A DNA stretch of 64,000 nucleotides from Gracilinanus agilis (Eukaryota): assembly GCF_016433145.1 (NCBI RefSeq), contig NC_058133.1, forward strand, positions 193,674,661-193,738,660. Direction: 5' to 3'. The position numbers were made by a program, and so were the translations under genes. Numbering within the stretch: position 1 is the stretch's first letter; each line of letters opens with the position of its first letter. Below are positions 2,281 to 46,500 of the stretch, piece by piece. The notes beneath the pieces were generated by a model. The model was not told where the DNA came from and did no database searches. It saw nothing but the letters and a program-made list of their open reading frames with translations.

Positions 2281-3229
2281 AGAGATTTTTAAAAAAGCAA
2301 TATCACTTGGCAGTTGTGTGGAAGATATATTGGAGGCAGAAGAACAATTAGGAAGAGGTAAGAATACAGGTTGGAAGTAATGTGAGTTTGAACTAGAATG
2401 ATGGTTGCATGAATGGAGAGAAGATTAATGGATGAGAGAGATGATATGGAGATAGAGTCAATAAGACGTGGTAACTGACTGGATATGGGGGATGAGGGAG
2501 AATGAAGAGTGAAGATTAATTCTGAGGTTGTAAACATGGGTGACTGGAAAAATCTTTCAATAGAAACAGATATCTTTGGAAGATAGGAGGGTTTGGAGGG
2601 GAAGATAATGAGTTCAATTTTAAGCAGGATGAATTTGGGACAGCTATGGGTTATCCAATTGGATGATAATTGATTGATGATTCAAACACTTAAGTTATAT
2701 GCTTGAGATTGGGCATTTAAAAGACTATGGGAGCTCTAAAAACTAAAGAATTGGAAAGATGGAAACAGAGAAACAGAGAGAAAGGATACATAGAGACTTG
2801 GACTCAGTTCCTAGGAAGGGCTCCAGGGATACCTTTTTAAGACAATTAGAACCACATAGCCCTTCAAAGGACCCACGGATATCTAAGAACCAGCACCAGA
2901 TGAAGAGGGCCAAGTAGACGAATTCCTGGACCACACTTACTTCATGGAACAAGCAAAAGCTACAGCAGAAGAAAAGTAAGGAAGAGCTATGATCTGGAGA
3001 AGCAAACCTGAACCTTTATTGGAATTGTGAGTTCTGTGGACTGTGCAGGTCTAGGAAGAGAGGGTATGCTCTCTATTTTTTCCCTTTCTAATTGATTATG
3101 AACTCAAAAAACATCAACAAATGTGAATATTTCCACATACAAAGTACAGAAAAGATTGTAAGATTGTATAGGAAACTGAAAATTCTCTAATATGTCCAAC
3201 TCGGCTTACTAGAACTAACATTGTCTAGT

Positions 3230-3830
3230 GCCTGTGTTCTTTTCTGAATTTCCTTTTACTCTCTTCTGTGGATTTTTAAAAATTGTTTTATTGATACTCT
3301 TTTGTTTTCTTTCTTTTTGCATCACTATCACTAGCTCCAGTGTTCCCTACAATTCTCTCTTTCCACAAAAACAAACAAAAAATCCTTCTATCAAAGCAAA
3401 ACACATCTCCACACTGACCATGTCTGAAAACATATTATTCTGCACCTCTCTTTCATCACCTCTCTGCCAAGAAGTGAGAAGAAACATGGTTTATTACCAA
3501 AATATTCTGTAGATAAGACTGGTCATTGCACTGTTCAGTTTTTCAGTTTTTTTTAAGTTGGTAAACCTTACAATAAAGTAGTTATTATATGCATAGTTTT
3601 CCTGATTCTACTCACTTCATGTCAGTCTATAGCAAATCTTCCCAGGTTTATCTGAATCTGTTCCTTTTACCATTTTCTTTTTATAACACAATAGTATTCC
3701 ATTATATTAACAGACCACAATTTGTTCAGTAATTTCCCAGTTCTGGGATAACCCAATAATTGCCAGGTTTTTGCTACAACAAAACGTGCTCCTTTCACAA
3801 TTTTTGTACATATGGTTCGTTTCCCTAGGG
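3230..3830 (-). mobile_element. Old L1 ORF2 3' end / 3' UTR fragment
   Basis: aatagtattccat...ccacaatttgttcag...tttttgctac pattern. Confidence 0.55.
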
Positions 3831-4353
3831 TAGACTCTTACTGACATTAAATGTTATCCTTTTGTTTGAGGGCCTCACTTAGATTAATAATATGTTTGGA
3901 AGATTGTATAGGTCTTTTGGAGGATTGTATAAGTTCATAGGGATGTGTGTTCACCATTAGGCTAGAAAGCTTGACTTCTTCACCATTACAACTGCTTTTC
4001 CTTTACGGGGACAAAGACACAGAGAAATACTGTACACCTGCAACAGGACTATAGAAATCTTTGGATAGGTAACAAACTCAAAAGAGAGAAAGGCTATCCT
4101 TAACTCATGGATTAATCTAAGATGAAAAAAAATGACAATCTCTACCTTCTAGGAACTTACAGCTAATTGAAAGTGGGTAGGGGAGGGCATAGGGGACAGA
4201 ATCAGATAAATACACAAATATGAATGATATAAGATATAAGTGTAATAAAGACAAAGGAGAGAGCTAGAAAAAATGTTATTTAAGGATGGCCAGATTAGTG
4301 AAGATTTTGAAGTGAAGTGGCACTGAGTCAGAGCTTAAAGAAAAGGAAAGATT

Positions 4354-4562
4354 GGGGACAGCTAAGTGGTTCAGTGGATAGAAAGAGTCAGGCCTGGAGA
4401 TGGGAAGTCCTGGGTTCAAATGTGATCCCAGATACTTCCTAGCTGTGTGTCCCTGGACAAGTCACTTGATTCCTAATGACCTAGCTTTTACTGCTCTTCT
4501 GCCTTAGAACCAATACATAATATTGATTCTGAGACAGAGAAGGTAAAGGTTTAAAAGAAAAA
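4354..4562 (+). mobile_element. SINE1_Mdo-like SINE
   Basis: gggga cagctaagtggttcagtggata head, GGTTCAAAT B box, aaggt tail. Confidence 0.85.
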
Positions 4563-4569
4563 GAAAGGA

Positions 4570-6400
4570 AAGGGAAGGATTTCAGCTGAGTCCTTCATCT
4601 CTAACATCTACTACAGCACTTGACACATACAGTAATCACTTCATGGTGTTGGAACGAATGAATGGGTGGATATGTGGAGGACATGTGTTCCTGGGGATGA
4701 TCGATTCGAAGAGGGCAAGATGATGTGGCAGCAAGTAATAATAAGTACATTGTGGTTAAAGGAAGTCTGGTGAAGAGACATGCAGTCAAAGAAGACTGGA
4801 AAGGTGAAGTGGATTCAACCTAATGAGAGTCCTGGAAGGCCAGACTAGCCGACAAGCAAGGGGGGATGACTTTTGAGCATTAGGAAATATAGTGAAAACT
4901 ATGCATTATTAGGAAGATTATCTTAGCAGGATGGATTGGGAAAAGGTGGAGATGAGAAGACAAAGACTCTTACTGACAAGAGGGCATGAGGGCCTGAATT
5001 GAAGGGGTAGGTAGTATGAGTAGAAAACAGGGAATGGATTAGAAAGAAAGAAAAGGCAGGACTTATGGCACTTAGTGGCTGATTAGACGTGGAGGGTGAG
5101 GAAGAAGAAAGAGTCATTGTTGACACAGAGGTTTTGAACCAGTGACCGGAGTAGTACTGTCAAGGCCATGCAAAGAAGATATTTCTTGTGTTCTTCCACC
5201 TTCTGCTAGCTGGTAAGCTCCTCAAAGGCCAGGGCTGTGTGTCTTTGTGTCCCTAGAGTTGGGTGTAGTGTCTTAAACATACCAGGTGCTAGACTTTTTT
5301 AGACAATTGACTTGAAGGGGCAGCTAGGAGGTTCAGTGGATTGAGAGCCAGGCTCAGAAACAAGCAGTTTAAATTTGGCCTCAGACACTTCCTAGCTGTG
5401 TGAACCTGGGCAATCATTTAATCCCCCTTGCCTAACCCTTATCACTCTTTTGCATTGGAACCAATACATAATACTGATTCTAAGACAGAAGGTAAGAGTT
5501 TTTTTTTTTTTTAATAATTGACTTGAGTTGGGAAGAATAAATGTTTGGAGGGGAAGGTGAATCAATTTCAGACAAGTTGACTTTGACATACCAGTGGGCC
5601 ATCTAGATGGAGAAATTCGGCAGACAGTTGGAAATAGGGAAGCCAAACTCTGGATTGATAGAGATTTAGGAATCTTTCCCCTAGAGCTGATAACTAAATC
5701 CAAGGGAATGGATGAACTCACCAAAAGAAAGACTATAAAGATGACTCAGGATAGAACTCTGGGGAATAGTTAGAAGGGAAATGGAAGAGGGCCTAGGAAA
5801 AAAAATTATGAAACACGGACACCTTGAAGGTATGAAGAGAAACCAGTGAAGGAGGCAGAGAAGAAATAGACCAGTAAAAGGAAAACTGAAAAGAATAATG
5901 TTACTAAAGCCAAAGGATGAGAGAATATCTAGAAAGACAAAATAGCCAATAGTATTAAATTTTGCAGAAATGTTAAGGATGATGAAGACTGAAAATGGGT
6001 CATAGAAGTTAGTCATTTAGAAATTATTGATGTCTTTAGAGTGAACTAAGAATTCAGTGGAGTTATGGTTACAGAATCCATACTTGGTGAGTGGATAGTA
6101 GTAGACAGCTAGCATCTGTACCCCTATTAGATTATAAGATCCCAAAAAATTCTTTCCAAAAGTTTAGCAGTGAAGGGAAGGAGAGCTAAAGGACTAGAGT
6201 TTGATTAGGTGGCAGAATTTATAGAAGGTTGGTAGGGGGTCAGGTTTCGGTTTTCTTTTTTGTTTTAAGATTGTGGAATCCTAAGTATGTTGTAGGTTGA
6301 AAAGAAAGAATCAGCAGAGGAGAGGATAGCTGAGGGAATAGAACAAAGGACAAATATGGTGACATTAATATTGCCAAGGAATTGGACCACTTCATCTACC
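4570..6400 (-). mobile_element. Old L2 remnants (interrupted by a SINE)
   Basis: Purine-rich antisense L2 ORF2 pattern. Confidence 0.55.
5317..5512 (+). mobile_element. SINE1_Mdo-like SINE
   Basis: Head, B box and tail; flanked by AATTGACTTGA duplication. Confidence 0.85.
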
Positions 6401-6772
6401 TGAGATTTTTCCCAATTCCCTTCTCTTCTCCCTCCAGCTGTTAGTGCTTCCTTTTAAAATTTACTTTTTATCTATTTTATATTTGCTTATATGTGTACTT
6501 ATTGTCTCCCCCTCTAGAACATAAGCTTCCTGAGGGCAAGGAGCTTTGAAGGCAGCCAAGGATTCTATGAGGCAGAAGCAAAAAAGGAGTGCATTTCAGG
6601 CATGGAGGAGAAAACCTATTGCAAAGGCATGGAGACAAAATGGAATGTTGTATTTAGGATCCAGTTAAGTTGGCCAGTTTAGTTAGGTGAGTGTGCGAAC
6701 GGTATTGATGAACTCTAAACCAGGAAAGATAGAATGGAGCCAGATAAATGAAGTGTTTTAAAAGGCAAGCAG

Positions 6773-6960
6773 AGGCAGCTAGGTGGCTCAGTGGATAGAG
6801 CTAGGCCTGGAGATGGGAGGTTCTGGGCTCAAATTTGGTTTTAGACACTTCCAAGCTATATGACCCTTAAGTAACTTAACTCCAACTGCCTAGCCTTTAC
6901 TGCTTTTCTGCCTTGGAACTGACACTTAAAATCCATCCTAAGACAGAGGCTTTTTTAAAA
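6773..6960 (+). mobile_element. SINE1_Mdo-like SINE
   Basis: Head, CORE and tail similarity. Confidence 0.75.
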
Positions 6961-7160
6961 AAGGCAAATAAAGGATTGCATATTGGATCCTAAGGGATGA
7001 GAGCCCCTGGAATTTCTAGAAGCAGGAAGTGACATGACATGTCCAGACCTATGCTTTAGGAATATCAATTTAGCAGTTGTATAGAGAATAAAAATTGGAG
7101 AAGGGAAGAAAAGACAAATTAAAGAGGCTCTTGTAGCAGACTAGGTAAAAGGTATGAACT

Positions 7161-7372
7161 AGGGGCAGCTGGGTAGCTCAGTGGAATGAGAGTCAGGCCT
7201 AGAGACGGGAGGTCCTAGGTTCAAATCTGGCCTCAGTCACTTCCCAGCCGTGTGACCCTGGGCAAGTCACTTGACCCCCATTGCCTACCCTTACCACTCT
7301 TCTGCCTTGGAGCCAATACACAGTATTGACTCCAAGACGGAAGGTAAGGGTTTTTAAAAAAAAAAAAAAAAA
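7161..7372 (+). mobile_element. Young SINE1_Mdo (long-tail type)
   Basis: 14-bp TSD AAAAGGTATGAACT (7147-7160, 7373-7386); poly-A tail; CpGs retained. Confidence 0.95.
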
Positions 7373-9407
7373 AAAAGGTATGAACTGGGAGAGGGAAATA
7401 GATTTGAGCTATGGAAGCAGAATTGACAAGACTTAGCAACTCTTGAGATGGGAAAAGGATGGTAGAGGGGAAGGAGAATAAAGAATGGAGAATGACAGAG
7501 GTTGTGAACCTGAGTGACTGGAAAGTACTGTCAACAGAAATACGGAAGTTTGGAAAATGGGAGGACTTGAAGAGAAAAATAACGAATTTTGTTTTGGATA
7601 TGTTGAGTTTGAGGTGCCTACAGGATATCTAGGTGACTATGTTCAGTAAGCAGTTGGTGAGACTAGAGACTAGAACTCAGTCATTCTACAGTGTTTATTA
7701 CCCATCTACTATGTTCCAGGCACTGATAAGCACTTGGAATACAAGGACAAAGAATGAAATAATCCCTACTTATATTTATGTATACATATATATGTAACAG
7801 ATATTACATGTAATATTATGTAATTATATACTTGCATAGGAGCTTATATTTTAATGGGGAAACAGAGAGACAATCGGATGTGTAATAAAACTGGGAAGCA
7901 TCTGGATAGAGATATCTGAACCCACTTGCATTGATGAGAATACAGAGAAAGACAAAGGGAGAAAGACAGCAGAAAGGAGCCCTAAGTCAGAGCTTTGAGG
8001 TCTATCCAGTTAGTGGGATTGGACACATATTAGCATCCAACAAAGTAGAATGGGAAGTGACCAGACCCCCATACTAAGGCACTTGCCTTTGGGAGCCCCA
8101 CCCCTAAACTTGTCCCTTCCCAATGCCCTGTTTCATTTTCAGAAAAGATTGAGTTTAACTCTACACTTCAATAACATTAAACACAGAATTATATAATCAG
8201 AATGTCAGAGTTGGAAGTGACCTTAGGCCATAAAACAAAAAATGGTAGGTGTAAAAGACTTCAAAATCTCTATCTAGTCTAACTTCATTATATAAATGGG
8301 GATATTAGTCCTAGAGTGGTGAAATAACTTGTTTAAACAGACAAAATGAGTCACTTGCAGATACAGGACTTAAACTTAGATTTCCTGACTCCCAGGTTAG
8401 CACTCCAACCATGGAGAAAAGTGGAGCCAAACCAGAAATATTCATTCTTACAGGTCTGTTTCTACCCTCAAGGTTTTTCTTGCAAATAAAAATGAAAATG
8501 AAGCCAGGAAGGGGAAGGAGATTAAAGATTGTAATCAATTAATAAACAAGCATTTGTAGAGTGCTTAATCTGAGCAAAGTCCTCCTGGGGACTTGCTGTT
8601 TGACCTTTGTCAAGTCATTTCCTCCTTGGGCCTCAGTTTCTTCTTCTGTAGGAGGAAAGTTGATCTAGATGTGGGGGGGGGGGGAGGGGTGGTTTCCAAA
8701 CTGTTTTCAGATCCACCTGCATCTGGGCTTTCAGTAAACCTTTCCAGTATCTTCTATTCAATATGAAAGACAAAAAAATCTTTAATTTCCTGTGCATATG
8801 CACATTAGAAAAACTTTCTTTTACCACTTTTTTCAGTAGTACAGGAAGCAAGTGATAGAACTTATTATACATACAAAAATAAGAAATAAAGAGATTAATT
8901 TCAATAGGGTGCTCATGTGGTGGTCTGAATAGTCCCAGTACATCTTGGGCAAGCTCCTTCTACCCCAAACTGAGTACCCCAGAATTAGATGATCTCCAAG
9001 CCCCTTCTACCTCCCCCCCCCCCCCCCCCATCTGAAGGTTATAGCCTTTCCTTCCGTCCTCGCTCCACCCATTCACATTCACTCCCCAGGCTCTTTCCTC
9101 AGTTGAACTTCCAGCCTTAGAATTCGGTTCCATTAACGTGACATGCAACCACAGAAAACTGCCTTAACACCAGTCCTGCAAAGACAGCAGGCTGCAGGGA
9201 GTGACCCCCACTCCACCAGAACAAACTAGCCCGGGGAGATGACAAGAGGTGCTTCGGAACCTTCTAACTGAGAGCAACTGGGACAGGGGAAGAATGGAAG
9301 AGTGAGGAGCGAAGGGGTGTGGTTTGAAAAAAAGAAGGAACATCGAGCACTTCCGGTAAGACCGGAAGCGGAGGCGAGGTTGGTGGCCGCGGGCCCAGGC
9401 TACAGGG

Positions 9408-30308
<20,901 letters not shown>

Positions 30309-33048: not shown

Positions 33049-34428
33049 CTGTGCAGGGCGACAGGGATGGGGTGAAGTCCCAGAATAGTAGCACGTGACC
33101 CTTTCAAAGTCCTCAGTGCCTTCAGCTCCCAGGGAGGTTCACAGATGCCCACATTTCAGCTCTGCCTATTGCCAACAAGCTCCTTCCTTTCAGCCTCCCT
33201 GATGCTTAGCTTTTCCTGTGTGTGAGGCTTTACTATTCATGCCCAGCTTTCTCAGGCTCCATCTCAGGTCCATTTCTCCATAGGAGACGCCTGGCTTTCC
33301 ACCATACCAGTTATGTATGCCTAGTTACTGACTTCTTTCTAGTTCTCCACATCTGGGGAGATACCTGTCCTCTCCCTACGATTCATTTCTCATGTTCCAC
33401 CATGGAACTGCAGCAGCTAAAAACCATCTGTTAACATCTGTTCTCTGCTTTAGCCCTTCCCTCCACTTCCCATCTGTCTCCTCCCCCTTCTCCCCTCATG
33501 TTTCAGGCCCCTCACTCCCATCCCCTCCTGTCCCCCACCACCACCAGGGGTCTCACTCACCCTTTGCCCTCGATGAGGCAGACATGTTGACTGTAGTGGC
33601 TCCAGTCAAAGGCACCAGGGTCCTGTCGCAGCCAGACCCCCAGCTCCTGACGATTTACCTCCAAGAAGTCAGTCATAGTGATGTCCTCAAAGTGGGCACA
33701 GGCGCTGAGCAGCTGGTACACAGTGGGGCCAGAGCCAATATCAATGAGGCTATGGCCAGTCACTTCACCTGGGGAACCAACACCCAGGCTGTTAGTCAGT
33801 CTCCCTCTCCTCTGCCTCTGTGGGCTTCATTCTTCACCTGTTCAGTCTTCCTCTCTGTCTTGTCTCTGTTTCTGTTCTCTCCCTACAGCATACTCAGGAT
33901 CTCTATTTCAGTCTGTCTCTGTCTCTCTCTTCCTCGATCCTCCCTCTATTTTCTCCCTATCCTCTCTATCTTTGTGTCTCTCTTCCTGTCCTGTCTCTGA
34001 CTCTACCCTCGATTTGTCTCTATTCTCTATCTCTCCCTAGCTTCTCTGTCTCTGACTCTATCCTCTCTGTCTCCATTTCTCTATTCTCTTTTTCTGGGTC
34101 TCTCCATCCTCTGTCTCTGTTTCTATCCTGTCTCTCTTTCTCTCTCCCTATCCTCTCTTTTTGTCTCTGTCCTCTCTATCCAGTCTCTCTCTCTCTCTCC
34201 TCTATCTCCCTATCCTCTCTGTCTTTCTCTATCCTCTCTGTCTATCTCTCTATCCTGTTTCTGTCTCTTATCTCCCTATCCTTTCTCTGTCTAGCTTCTC
34301 TGTTTCTATCTTCTCCGTCTCTGTGTCCCTATCCCCTTTATTTTCCTATCCTGTCTCTCTCTGTCTATCCTCTGGCTCTTTCTCTCCCTATCTTTTCTGT
34401 CTCTATTATGCTATCCTCTCTCTCTGCC

Positions 34429-34507
<79 letters not shown>

Positions 34508-34535
34508 CTATCCTGTCTCTGTCTCTTATCTCCCT

Positions 34536-34583
<48 letters not shown>

Positions 34584-35240
34584 GGGTCTTCCCTCTCTCT
34601 CTATCTCCCTATCCTCTTTATTTCCCTATCCTGTCTCTCCCTGTCTATCCTCTGGCTCTGTCTCTACCTTGCTCTGTCTCTGTCTCTATCTGTCTAGCTA
34701 TCCTGTCTCTGTCTCTTATCTCCCTATCCTCTCTCGGTCTCCGTCTATCTTTTGGGTCTGACCTCTCTGTCTCTGCCTCCCAGTCCTCTCTATTTGTTTG
34801 TTTGTTTGTTTGTTTATGTTTCTCTCTATCTGTTTATCCTCTGGCTCTGGCTCTCCCTATCCTCTCTCTGTGTCTGTCTCTATCCTGTCTTTTTGTCCCT
34901 CTCTATCCTTTCTGTCTTTCTACACTTAAAAAAAAATCTCTGGCAGACAACTGTGCCCTTCTGAGTTATAAAGCTCACCTCTCCAACTCCTCTTGCTCCC
35001 CTGCCATGCCATGCCTCAGTTTCCCCCCAACCCTTGCTGCTCACCCGTGGCAAAGGTTTCGGCTAGACATCGCAGTTTCCAGGGTCCCACGCCATCTGGT
35101 TGGCGCAGGTCCCCTCGAGGGGGTCCATAGTTGTTGCGGAGATAGGGGCCAGGCTCGAAGCGCTGGTAACTGGCCGCCACCGCCGCCCTCCCTGGGTCGG
35201 AAGATGCCCCAGTGCCCAGGTTCTTGCTCTCGCTGCTCAT
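32610..35240 (-). CDS. PNMT: Phenylethanolamine N-methyltransferase, full spliced CDS (3 exons, 843 nt, 280 aa)
   Basis: complement(join(35045-35240,33561-33768,32610-33048)). SAM motif LIDIGSGPT, YLRNNY, FCLEAVS, LEESWY and VDDVKG are present. Confidence 0.98.
33561..33768 (-). CDS. PNMT: PNMT exon 2 (208 nt)
   Basis: ttccccag|EVTGHSLIDIGSGPT...CLIEGKG|gtgagt. Confidence 0.97.
33800..34930. repeat. Compound CT-rich low-complexity tract in PNMT intron 1, with (TCTA)19 at 34429-34504
   Basis: Almost purine-free on the + strand apart from TCTA/CCTA/GTC units. Confidence 0.97.
35045..35240 (-). CDS. PNMT: PNMT exon 1 coding part (196 nt)
   Basis: MSSESKNLG...WKLRCLAETFATG|gtgagc. Confidence 0.96.
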
Positions 35241-40362: not shown

Positions 40363-40768
40363 TCAGCCTCTTTGTGCTTCCTGGGACATAGATCGGGATA
40401 GAGAGCGACGGGGGGCGCCAGGTTTGCCAAACTGGGGGTGGCTGGCAGCCACCACAGGAGGCAGCTCCTTTTTGATCTCAATCACCTCACGCCGGTCCAG
40501 GCACTGCCCCCCCAGAGCTGTTTCCAGAGCCAGGAGCTCCCGAAGCTGGATGGGAGTGGCCTCACGATCTTCCTTGAAGCCCACCTTTGAGGGCGTGAAG
40601 ATGGGCAGAGGCAGAGTCCTCGCATAGGGCAGCTGGTACTCCTGCAATCTCTGGCCAAGGATGCCCATCCGCATCACTTGCAAGGGTGACCGTTGCACCA
40701 GGGCCTGGCACTGCCCCTGCCTGTGGTATGTCTCTCGGTGCTGGGTATCTTCTTCGTGCACAGAGCAA
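40363..40768 (-). CDS. TCAP: TCAP exon 2 coding part (406 nt)
   Basis: ttttcccag|CSVHEEDTQ...SQEAQRG-TAA. Confidence 0.97.
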
Positions 40769-41106
40769 CTGGGAAAAGAGCATTGTGTAGGCAAAGGAGA
40801 CTCTTAGAGTAAAGCCACCGCTGCCTGCCCCCATCCCTCATGCCTGAGAGGGTGACACAGGCTGTCAGGCTCTCCGAGGTCTAACTGGGTGCCTGAGGGT
40901 GTGTGGTGTGGGTGGGCATCCCTGCCATAAGGGCACCTGGCCCCTCTGAAGAGGTTCCCTTGATTCAGTCTTAGGGTAAGGCTGTGGGGCACTTACCCCT
41001 CCTCTGGCCGGGAAGACAGCGTCAGATCCTTCCACTCAGCCCAAAAGGTCTCCCTCCGGTCCATGTTCTCTTCCGACACCTCGCAGCTCAGCTCGAGTGC
41101 AGCCAT
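40363..41106 (-). CDS. TCAP: Telethonin / titin-cap, full spliced CDS (2 exons, 516 nt, 171 aa)
   Basis: complement(join(40997-41106,40363-40768)). ELSCEVSEEN, FWAEWKDL, EYQLPY and C-terminal RRSLSRSMSQEAQRG are present. Confidence 0.98.
40997..41106 (-). CDS. TCAP: TCAP exon 1 coding part (110 nt)
   Basis: ACCATGG Kozak; MAALELSCEV...SRPEEG|gtaagt. Confidence 0.97.
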
Positions 41107-43412: not shown

Positions 43413-43517
43413 CTACGCTCGAGCACATAACTCTCCGACCCGCTGCCGGAGGTGGAAGGCAAATTCAAACATGGTGGTAGCCAGGCTCTGGTGAATGAGG
43501 TATCGGGGCAGTCGGCC
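43413..43517 (-). CDS. STARD3: STARD3 last exon, coding part (105 nt)
   Basis: [37 protein letters not shown]. Confidence 0.96.
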
Positions 43518-46500
43518 CTGGTTTGCAGGTGGGATGAGAAAGAGAAGGAAGACAGTCACTAGTGTTATAAAATAAATAAATATGGACTCTTCTTGATGGT
43601 GCTATGCTCCTAGGGATATTGGTTAGGGAAGCTGGACATCAGAGCCATATTCTTAATCTCCTCTATCTCCTTGGCCTTTTGAACTTCCTTTAGTAGTCTC
43701 TTCAGCTATGTAATCTCTCTATCCTTTTCAGAGGCCTTTGATTGCTTAGGCTCACTATCCCTAGACTCATGGATGTATGGCAGCAGTCTTTCTTAGTTCT
43801 TCAATGGGCATAGTCTCCCACTGTGAGCAATGCAACTTGAAATAAGCCTGGATGTGGTTTAGACTGCCCTTTACAAACTGCCTCCTGACATGCCGGATGT
43901 TATCCTCAACTATCATGTCCCTGAAACCTAGGGTAGTTTTGCCTAAATCCTCTCTATACCTCTTGAGATAAGCTGTGTTTGCATGTGAGAAGAGTTCCAA
44001 GTCCTGGTATTGTTCTGGCCAGGAGGCAAGATTGGGGTTGCTTCTTGTCTTGGCTATAAACTTTGCCTTCTCACTGGGGGTGTATAATTCTGATAAGAGC
44101 TATTCCACATCCTCAAATGTTGGGTTGTAAAGTCTCACAGCCTGTTTATATTCTTTTATAGACTTATGGTGATTTGTGTAGAACTGAGGAAACCTCCTTT
44201 TTAAGATCTCCAGATCACCTCCTGAGAAAGGTTTGTAGCCCTTAACATGTATAATGCCTGAGTTGGGTTGTACCACTGTCCTATCAGTAATGGGAAGGAT
44301 AGTTACAGGAGCTGCTTCAAGCCCCGCAACCTGTTGTTCTTCAGTGTTCTTATCTGTAGCCCCTTTTTTGGTGTGACTGCACTCTCAATAATCTCTAGCT
44401 GCATGATTGTCTTTGCATCTAGATCCTTTCCTTCCCTGATTTGCTTTTTTATCTCAATTAGGGTCTTCATGTACTCCACTAATTACTCCAAAACCGGGTT
44501 TGTTATTTCTGTTCTTCCAAAGGTAAATGCCAGAACTTTCCTCAATATCATCAGGGCCCCATAAAAAGTTGCAGCCATGGCTATTCCCAATGGCACATAT
44601 GCCAAAGCATCACCCACTGATATAGTTAACCACATGTAAGTATTATATATTTCTATCATTTGTTTGAAAAACTGGGGAACAGTTATCAGCCAAAAGGTAG
44701 CACAAGTTTGTCAAAACCCATATATTAGCACCCCAGAGCACCCCAGTGTGACAATAGCTCTGTTGATGAAGCTGGCCATACTGATCACTTCCTACTCAGG
44801 TTCTGAAATAAAAATCCCAGGCTGGCTGTAATATAACACTAGATAGGAATGAGTTAAATGTCTTTCCTGTGCCTGCCCTNNNNNNNNNNNNNNNNNNNNN
44901 NNNNNNNNNNNNNNNNNNNNNNNNNNNNNNNNNNNNNNNNNNNNNNNNNNNNNNNNNNNNNNNNNNNNNNNNNNNNNNNNNNNNNNNNNNNNNNNNNNNN
45001 NNNNNNNNNCATCAGAAGACGCTGAACTCAGGCTGGGCAGCAAAGGCCAGGGTACCTGGGCACCAGCAGGGGGCCCCTCTTGGCCAGGCAACAGAGGAGG
45101 TTTATGCAGCTCAGAGAACAGTGTGTTCCCGTAGCCCTGGCTCCAGCCCCATGGGATGGAGGGGGAGGAGCATCTCCAGGCCCTGTGGGGAATGGTAAAG
45201 AGGAGGTGCTCACATTCGTATAGGCCCAGTTCTAATGTACCTTGAGATCTGTGTTGAGAACCCAGACAAAGGTGCAGACTCGAGGGTTGCTGGGGGACTT
45301 GAGCACAATGAAGCCGCCAGGTCCATTCTCACCCCTGAGGAGTGGAAGATACAGTCTGAGTTCACTGCCCCATACCCCAGCCCAACAAGCTTTCCCTCCT
45401 TTGGACCCCTCTCCTGAACCTGAGCTGGGGAGGAGGCCAGAAGTGGAGCTGCTGGGGAGACCCAAAAGATCCCCGATCCAGGGGTGAATCCAGGAGGCGT
45501 TTGGGAGGGGAAAGAGGTGGGAGTTTAGCTCAGTCATGTCTCCATTCCAGTGTAACTCAACCCCAGCCCTAAAGGGAGAGTCTTTCTTGGTTACCCTCTC
45601 CTGAGGTTTGGGGTCCTCTGATGGCAAGACTGACAAAGGGTCTTTGTAAGGAGGAGGCCCAAAGAAAAGCTTTTTGCCCTCCCTGAGGCAGAGAAGGGGC
45701 AGATAGACTCCAACCAGAGCTGTTTACTCCCTCATTGCTGGGGTTCCCCACTCCAGTCTCACATAGGCTGGGCCTTAATTTGCAGGAAGGGTATTGTAGG
45801 TAAAACTGGGAGGTCATCCTGGAGGAGCTGGTATCTAAGCCTCTTCAGAGACACCCAAGACCATGAAGTAGCTACCTGAAAGTCACACAGTTGAGGACAA
45901 CCTCCTGTGACAGACATTCTTCCTCCAACCCCCCTGGGTGCCTGATCTCCTCTCTCCTGCTGTCCCTAGGGTGGGGGGTAGGGGGAGGCGGCCCACCCTT
46001 CGACTCCATACCAAGATCCCCTGCTCTTCCCTCACTCACCCTCCTCCCTGCTGGGCTCCAGCAGCCATGTCCACATGACAGGGGAGAATGGCCAGAGGCA
46101 TTAAGAGGGTTAGTAGTTTATCAAGTGACCAAAGCGGGGTGAAGAATGGGGACATTTAAAGGACGCTAACCCTCTAGAACTGCCTGAGGTTCCTGCTGAG
46201 ACATGTCTGGAGATGGGGCCATTCTGTTCGTAGAAGGGATCGGCTGAAATGACTCTGAGGCCTTACCTGACATACTTGTGCATCGGGGGCTTGGCAAAGT
46301 GGGTGGTAGCAATGCCCGAGGAGAGGTATCTGTCCCTCCGCCTCTCGATTCGCCGGACATTCACAAAGTCCCTGGAAAAATAAAGGCAGTGAAGGACCAG
46401 TTTAAGTTCAGGAGGTCACACCCTGAGAGCAGGGAAGATGATGGCTGCAAGGGCAGCAGTCCAAGTTGGGGAAGGGGTAATGATGGAACAGAAAGAGAGG

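Follow-up and report, generated by a model that had tools for sequence, protein, structure and literature searches.

A multi-copy retroviral-type insertion made up mostly of gag in an intron of Gracilinanus agilis

The insertion and its setting

The stretch of Gracilinanus agilis DNA analyzed here (64,000 nt, hereafter the window) carries on its minus strand the end of a START-domain gene, presumably STARD3, as judged from its C-terminus and from its neighbor TCAP (the STARD3-TCAP pair). The Pfam START profile matched at positions 143-174 on an upstream exon near 45235-45340 and at 175-207 on the last coding exon, and Telethonin was matched at 40366-40770. The last intron of the gene contains a retroviral-type insertion of 1276 bp (43563-44838). 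The acceptor of the last exon is about 40 nt downstream of it, and the branch-point-like motif and pyrimidine tract of the intron are intact. The last exon and the ends of the insertion are as follows:

43413..43520, minus strand: last coding exon of the START-domain gene (STARD3), Pfam START profile 175-207
43559..43562, no strand: left TSD, CTAG, from the sequence
43563..43569, no strand: left short inverted repeat, an integrase att-type end, TGTTATA on the plus strand; record 9 of sequencing run X2 starts here with a different flank
44832..44838, no strand: right short inverted repeat, TATAACA on the plus strand, from the sequence
44839..44842, no strand: right TSD, CTAG, from the sequence

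An earlier note, made from the sequence, had placed TGTTATA at 43563, the end of TATAACA at 44838 and CTAG at 43559-62 and 44839-42, and had given the same length of 1276 bp; each of these is correct. The GC content of the element is 41.6%, with 3 CpG, and that of its flanks is 56-60%. Its ends form a perfect inverted repeat for 7 bp and no further, and together with the 4-bp TSD they match the general LTR end consensus, TGTTRNR…YNYAACA, given in the available text of PMC3601003. Consensus ends with a 4-bp duplication and a perfect 7-bp repeat arose somewhere in 15.5% of 200 whole-window shuffles, and the terminal motifs alone are thus poor evidence of an insertion. At edges set independently by read depth (see below), the end pair and TSD were found in 0 of 2000 shuffles, which bears out the integrase-type ends that the note had described, and we regard the insertion in the STARD3 intron as confirmed.

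A further claim, that the element lacks paired LTRs, also held. Comparison of its first and last 200 nt gave a direct repeat score of 19, which 53 of 300 shuffles reached, and four short PBS/PPT-like motifs gave one loose internal match at 44561 and none at the element ends. No pol was found in the element. The window holds no second copy (the best other blastn match had an E of 0.24), and none of 13 related proteins, one of them with a reverse transcriptase (RT), matched ERV sequence elsewhere in it.

Other features of the window include a 130-N assembly gap at 44880-45009, which begins 37 nt to the right of the element and beyond which record 8 of run X1 covers 45010-45225 with 0 differences. 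A degenerate TC/TATC simple repeat of about 1.1 kb, with a GC skew of -0.6, occupies 33850-34930, and many copies of a tRNA-type SINE, which we take to resemble opossum SINE1, are spread across the window.

The gag cargo

Most of the element consists of a single feature:

43631..44779, minus strand: broken class I gag, from the ATG at 44779 to 43631, 1149 nt, 90% of the element

The note had reported about 1.05 kb of gag-like sequence running to within roughly 40 nt of the left terminus. The gag is present, with a frame of 1149 nt, and its homology extends as far as 43631, leaving 68 nt to the left end. Its ATG, in a strong Kozak context, is the 60th base from the right end. The parts that can be recognized are a hydrophobic N-terminal region, the capsid NTD, a capsid CTD without its major homology region, and a short charged tail; the homology stops before the nucleocapsid, and a zinc knuckle is absent. 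The frame is interrupted by stops at 44713, 44485, 44102, and 43708 (and at 43612 in the run-on past the homology) and by frameshifts near 44360 and 43779, and about 38 codons are absent at 43944 in comparison with the Monodelphis domestica Gag P0003, a loss that removes the major homology region.

A search of 1.84 billion proteins with the capsid piece yielded 12 matches at E ≤ 0.001, the best being P0003 itself (LOC103106438, XP_007499152.1; 520 aa) at E 1.3e-45 with 46% identity over the matched stretches, in an alignment that spans the hydrophobic N-terminus, capsid, and charged tail and stops before the zinc knuckle. Eight of the 12 relatives match Pfam Gag_p30, six of them above the cut-off. 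The capsid NTD of MLV matched the element's gag at E 0.0075, and a profile of 15 sequences matched MLV Gag at E 6e-36. The fold predicted for the gag (pLDDT 71.6, pTM 0.41) had MLV capsids as its best Foldseek matches, at E 0.006, and none at E ≤ 0.001. Pfam matched 0 of the 3 gag pieces, the capsid piece had no match in word-index protein searches that covered 685 and 110 candidates, an alignment search matched 3 of 7,996, none of them closely related to this copy, and scans of metagenome and viral contigs gave 193 and 4 pattern matches, none of which was confirmed. By these sequence comparisons, the cargo is assigned to a class I (gamma-like) ERV gag on the minus strand, and the note's view of it is upheld by the match to the Monodelphis Gag. 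The TG…CA ends and 4-bp TSD agree with this class.

The nearest known systems are three Monodelphis class I ERV Gags, LOC103106438 (P0003), LOC103101729 (P0016/P0018), and LOC103104189 (P0004), which share with the element a hydrophobic N-terminus, a Gag_p30-type capsid, and a charged tail; P0003 contains a CCHC zinc knuckle in addition to its major homology region, whereas the element has neither. In P0009, a Monodelphis relative at a greater distance (32%), a single gene model contains gag and, after it, reverse transcriptase.

In the N-terminal part of the element's gag (44779-44520, minus strand), 19-residue hydropathy rises to 1.7. Across the lineage (P0003, P0004, P0006, P0016, and the element), one or two N-terminal hydrophobic stretches replace the Met-Gly myristoylation start, and the Gags of this lineage may be membrane-anchored. 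The Gag of the mouse IAP is targeted to the ER, and could be a parallel. We also noted an 11/12-nt direct repeat (43628-43639 and 44768-44779) that brackets the gag segment, one copy lying at the start codon and the other at the junction of gag with the terminal segment; its score is not above that of shuffles (53 of 300), and its placement at both junctions is odd.

Terminal segments and candidate signals

Outside or overlapping the gag frame are three features:

43563..43630, minus strand: 68-nt non-gag terminal segment; gag homology of relatives stops at 43631-33; implied depth in run X1 about 5,700
44721..44746, plus strand: TATA-like motif TATATTA (44721) and 10-bp tandem, inside the gag frame and upstream of the stretch that aligns to Monodelphis
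44780..44838, minus strand: 59-nt leader, from the right TG terminus to the gag ATG; X1 depth 11,835 over 44774-44830; X4 record 28

The 68-nt segment is T-rich toward its minus-strand end (13 T in the last 25 nt) and likely represents the U5 end of an LTR, or the start of U3 in the case of a plus-strand LTR. The one acceptor-like site that the element has on its minus strand is in the leader; its AG ends at 44803, 23 nt before the ATG. Such a site arose in 709 of 20,000 shuffles of the leader, and the rate in the window is 2.4 per kb per strand. Read on the plus strand, the leader contains AATAAA (44807-12), 32 nt from the end, which arose in 1,476 of 20,000 shuffles; neither AATAAA nor ATTAAA occurs on the minus strand of the element. 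The pyrimidine tract of the acceptor and the AATAAA are the same bases.

The note had proposed that the TATA-like motif, the tandem, and the AATAAA sit near the right end as they do in an LTR. All three are where it placed them, and their meaning as LTR signals is weakened: the first two lie in the gag frame and are likely coding-derived, and the AATAAA, read on the other strand, belongs to the sole minus-strand acceptor-like site. The tandem (AGCACCCCAG twice, at 44727-46) has an X1 depth of about 7,400-7,500, with no loss among the variants listed. The acceptor-like site at 44803 reads in the same direction as STARD3 and is upstream of the true acceptor of the last exon, and it could give rise to a cryptic exon in that gene.

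Copy number and relatives

Four public sequencing runs (X1-X4), all from one study, were searched for contigs that align at 80% likeness. Run X1, a large genome-size run, gave 1535 contigs, of which 170 were at least 99% alike, 314 were 95-99%, 575 were 90-95%, and 476 were below 90%. The listed data comprised 24 of 264 loose ends (6 for X1), 30 of 1,580 pieces, 40 of 212 variant rows, and 12 joints; none of the listed runs that contain the stretch was an RNA run. The summed X1 depth was 2,919-12,150 in 22 of 22 bins across 43577-44830 and 22-26 over unique flank (45002-45225), a median ratio of element to flank of 302, although summed contig depth is inflated by overlaps and gives no copy number. 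Copies in the genome probably number in the hundreds, and the note's suggestion of a family, as opposed to a single-copy sequence, is supported to this extent.

Depth in X1 begins at the left terminus, with an implied 1,343 over the first 14 nt, and on the right it stays at 11,835 up to 44830 and is 19 in the next bin. The terminal segments, at about 5,700 (left) and 11,800 (right), are about as deep as gag, with its median of about 7,800. In the Tasmanian devil, 64,546 solo LTRs are counted against 12,900 gene-bearing ERVs, or about 5 per ERV (PMC11334065). Because ordinary LTR ends are expected to show a several-fold excess of this kind, the observed depths argue that gag travels with the ends, and the position of gag next to the TG terminus is likely a trait of the family and not a one-off. 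Another copy (X4 record 28) matches 44513-44828, through gag and leader, and in X2 record 9, another copy with a different left flank, the 53 nt of the left end continue into other sequence. From the deep coverage to 44830, the lack of a loose end there among the 6 listed for X1, and X4 record 28, we infer that the end of the family lies no more than about 8 nt from the right terminus, with a slight difference at the tip. This, too, argues that gag travels with the ends. The last 8 nt were reached by no alignment of another copy among those listed, and both the absent loose end and the depth comparison are soft evidence, with 24 of 264 loose ends listed and with the likely private gaps at 43944 and 44360 each represented on one side only.

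Relatives depart from the element at 43631-33, as seen in 8 X1 contigs and in X3 record 16, which continues for a further 563 nt, and no bridging of 43631 by another copy was present among the pieces listed. These contigs and the left-end join in X2 record 9 fit a longer parent unit. Longer relatives therefore exist, probably with a nucleocapsid, and 1276 bp is probably not the full length of the family, whose other copies appear to lack the deletions of this one. Compared with its relatives, the STARD3-intron copy has gaps at the major homology region (43944) and of 19 nt near 44360, and other copies have skips of 70-304 nt. An assembly artefact was ruled out by X3 records 15 and 18, which have 0 differences at the left junction and the 43944 junction.

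From the X1 majority, the STARD3-intron copy departs at no fewer than 11 sites among 284 in one stretch and 8 among 316 in another. Another base accounts for 98-100% of the depth at three of its five stops, which therefore look private to this copy; the other two are not among the variant rows listed. The variant sites fall 6/6/7 by codon position (in the 40 of 212 rows listed, 6 outside the frames scored), with no excess at third positions. These private differences and even codon positions indicate a copy that is not young and appears to have decayed neutrally. Neither an empty-site joint nor a head-to-tail joint was among the 12 joints listed, which is no proof of absence.

Discussion

A probable LTR with gag inside it

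The order LTR-gag-pol-env-LTR is treated as fixed among retroviruses, and the ORFs known from LTRs are accessory genes. If, in many copies of the element, gag begins 60 nt inside a TG end, an LTR and PBS could not fit ahead of it, and gag would lie within the LTR. In addition, att-type ends, a 4-bp TSD, and the absence of an internal repeat, in dispersed copies, are the product expected of LTR-LTR recombination. We therefore consider it modestly probable that the element is a partly deleted solo LTR of a didelphid class I ERV with gag inside the LTR, in one orientation or the other. The best reading thus agrees with the solo LTR of the note, and not with the plus-strand orientation, carrying an inverted gag, that the note had given it.

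Within this reading, a tentative choice, possible rather than probable, is that gag lies in sense in U3 behind a splice acceptor, in a solo LTR of a high-copy class I ERV of the opossum lineage. On the minus strand there is a TG start, the sole acceptor-like site, an ATG in a strong Kozak context, gag, and a T-rich end, in that order, and sense ORFs in U3 have precedents in sag and nef (PMC2664473, in the text available). As the acceptor and the AATAAA share the same bases, the sequence cannot fully decide the orientation, and the opposite one is matched almost equally by the plus-strand AATAAA and by an A-rich start, in which 13 of 25 nt are A. Also against gag in the LTR are the ordinary gag-then-RT order of P0009, an implied LTR of about 2 kb versus a mean of 448 nt for opossum gamma-type LTRs, and the lack of any sign of selection on the gag frame in the variant data. 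A paired copy, PBS, PPT, or pol beside either end was not seen in the contigs, which could not show them.

We hypothesize that a provirus with two gag-bearing LTRs integrated into the last STARD3 intron, and that LTR-LTR recombination then removed the interior to leave one LTR between the copies of CTAG. In the parent virus, RNA from the 5′ LTR promoter would have been spliced to the acceptor 36 nt into the U3 of the 3′ LTR, and Gag would have been made from the ATG 23 nt past it, in the position of MMTV sag and HIV nef. One deletion at 43631, in the STARD3-intron copy or its subfamily, would have removed the nucleocapsid, promoter, R, and poly(A) signal while the T-rich U5 end was kept, with neutral decay to follow. 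The STARD3-intron copy is now inert. A shade more doubtful again is the broader proposal that a marsupial ERV lineage moved gag into the U3 of its LTR. Such a lineage would have had a permuted genome and a membrane-anchored Gag made from a spliced RNA, as env and sag are, and would have seeded hundreds of gag-bearing solo LTRs, each a cassette of splice acceptor plus gag for co-option by the host.

Other explanations

Collapse of a minus-strand class I provirus of the ordinary kind through several deletions is, in our estimation, unlikely, and is the strongest of the alternatives. A few starting bases of the 5′ LTR would then be joined to the gag leader, and the end of the capsid to the final 68 nt of the 3′ LTR, with the depth contributed separately by proviral gag copies and ordinary LTR ends; the element would be merely a much-deleted ERV relic. 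Deletions are demonstrable in this copy (at 43944, and 19 nt near 44360), other copies skip 70-304 nt, relatives past 43631 read like the run-up to a nucleocapsid, the listed alignments of other copies stop at 44828-44830, and P0009 has gag and then RT. However, a collapse of this kind requires one break to fall no more than about 8 nt from the terminus and predicts a deep, shared loose end at 44830, of which there is none among those listed, and it predicts LTR ends several-fold deeper than gag, where those observed reach at most about 1.5 times the gag median.

Somewhat less likely still is a solo LTR on the plus strand that captured gag in antisense, the antisense Gag of which could supply or block capsid assembly. 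It draws on the same repeat-depth evidence as gag in sense in U3, and the AATAAA at 44807 would be in the non-coding leader and the A-rich sequence at 43563 at the start of U3. The LTR would also be antisense to STARD3, the commoner orientation among tolerated intronic LTRs. However, R would contain the antisense start codon, and about 10-15 nt would remain for U5. The TATA candidate belongs to the coding sequence of gag, and the gag RNA would have neither promoter nor poly(A) signal within the unit. Antisense ORFs do occur in HML LTRs, but in the available portion of PMC2664473 the known antisense LTR ORFs have no Met start and no known homologs.

We consider it improbable that the element is a non-autonomous carrier of gag that an integrase-like transposase moved at the DNA level, as with Ginger elements, and that was never a two-LTR provirus. 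The minimal mobilized unit offered as an alternative in the note, if moved as DNA, is likewise unlikely. Uniform depth over one unit and the lack of direct repeats accord with it, as do the TGT…ACA ends and 4-bp TSD that are common to Ginger elements (PMC2836005, available text); however, the inverted repeat of 7 bp, the CTAG target, and the ERV gag cargo do not, and no head-to-tail joint is among the 12 listed. Rejected were a mini-LTR or two-LTR gag-only element of the MaLR, TR-GAG, or TRIM type (no direct terminal repeats), an ERV mRNA retroposed by LINE-1 as a processed pseudogene (its gag strand has no 3′-terminal poly(A) tail, the TSD is 4 bp, and the ends are of att type), and a Ginger DNA transposon (7-bp TIR, CTAG target, and no transposase).

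Comparison with known elements

The element resembles solo LTRs of ERVs in its TG…CA ends with the 7-bp consensus, 4-bp TSD, lack of an internal direct repeat, and probable high copy number, and differs from them in being 90% gag and about three times as long as the mean opossum gamma LTR. The available text of the two sources gives LTRs that average 448 nt for opossum gamma-type ERVs (PMC2664473) and range from 281 to 469 nt for Australian marsupial ERVs (PMC11334065). Long LTRs with an extended ORF toward their 5′ end are also known from MMTV (sag), primate lentiviruses (nef), and HML elements (antisense ORFs), but those ORFs encode accessory or unknown proteins, whereas the ORF here is the structural gag. 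MaLR, zebrafish Bhikhari, and plant TR-GAG are gag-only, non-autonomous LTR elements with gag between two LTRs. In these, gag-derived sequence is the sole coding content, as it is in our element, which has no direct repeats. Ginger elements share the TGT ends and 4-bp TSD, but have TIRs of about 40-270 bp, targets of CCGG/CCGT or RTATAY (PMC2836005, in the text available), and a transposase, all absent here.

A precedent for gag inside an LTR was not found in the literature searched, which consisted of listings and the beginnings of abstracts, with most subscription papers, Repbase reports, and Gentles 2007 outside its scope. The LTR-ORF survey in PMC2664473 covers sag, nef, a foamy-virus ORF, and unknown HML ORFs, none named gag in the available text, and the corresponding portions of PMC3582472, PMC13709493, and 10.1101/190694 describe no gag inside an LTR. 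Uncatalogued opossum ERV families are mentioned in PMC3582472, and the family to which the element belongs may already be in Repbase, Dfam, or Gentles 2007. Whatever its name, the element is multi-copy and odd in layout.

If a family with gag in its LTR does exist, synthesis of Gag could be uncoupled from that of Gag-Pol, and the gene would be duplicated at both ends of the provirus. Every solo LTR would retain both gag and a splice acceptor for it, and could plausibly give rise to intact, named Gag genes such as those of Monodelphis (P0003 and P0018). Repeat annotation would also be confused, as matches to gag would be scored as internal sequence.

P0003 (LOC103106438) and P0018 (LOC103101729) are intact Gag ORFs of 520-533 aa with 56% mutual identity, and are candidates for co-opted gag genes. 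The P0018 protein has at least 4 RefSeq accessions for one sequence. Another Monodelphis gene model, P0011, joins about 80 aa of the Gag family to a tyrosine-phosphatase domain, and is either a chimera or an artefact of the gene model.
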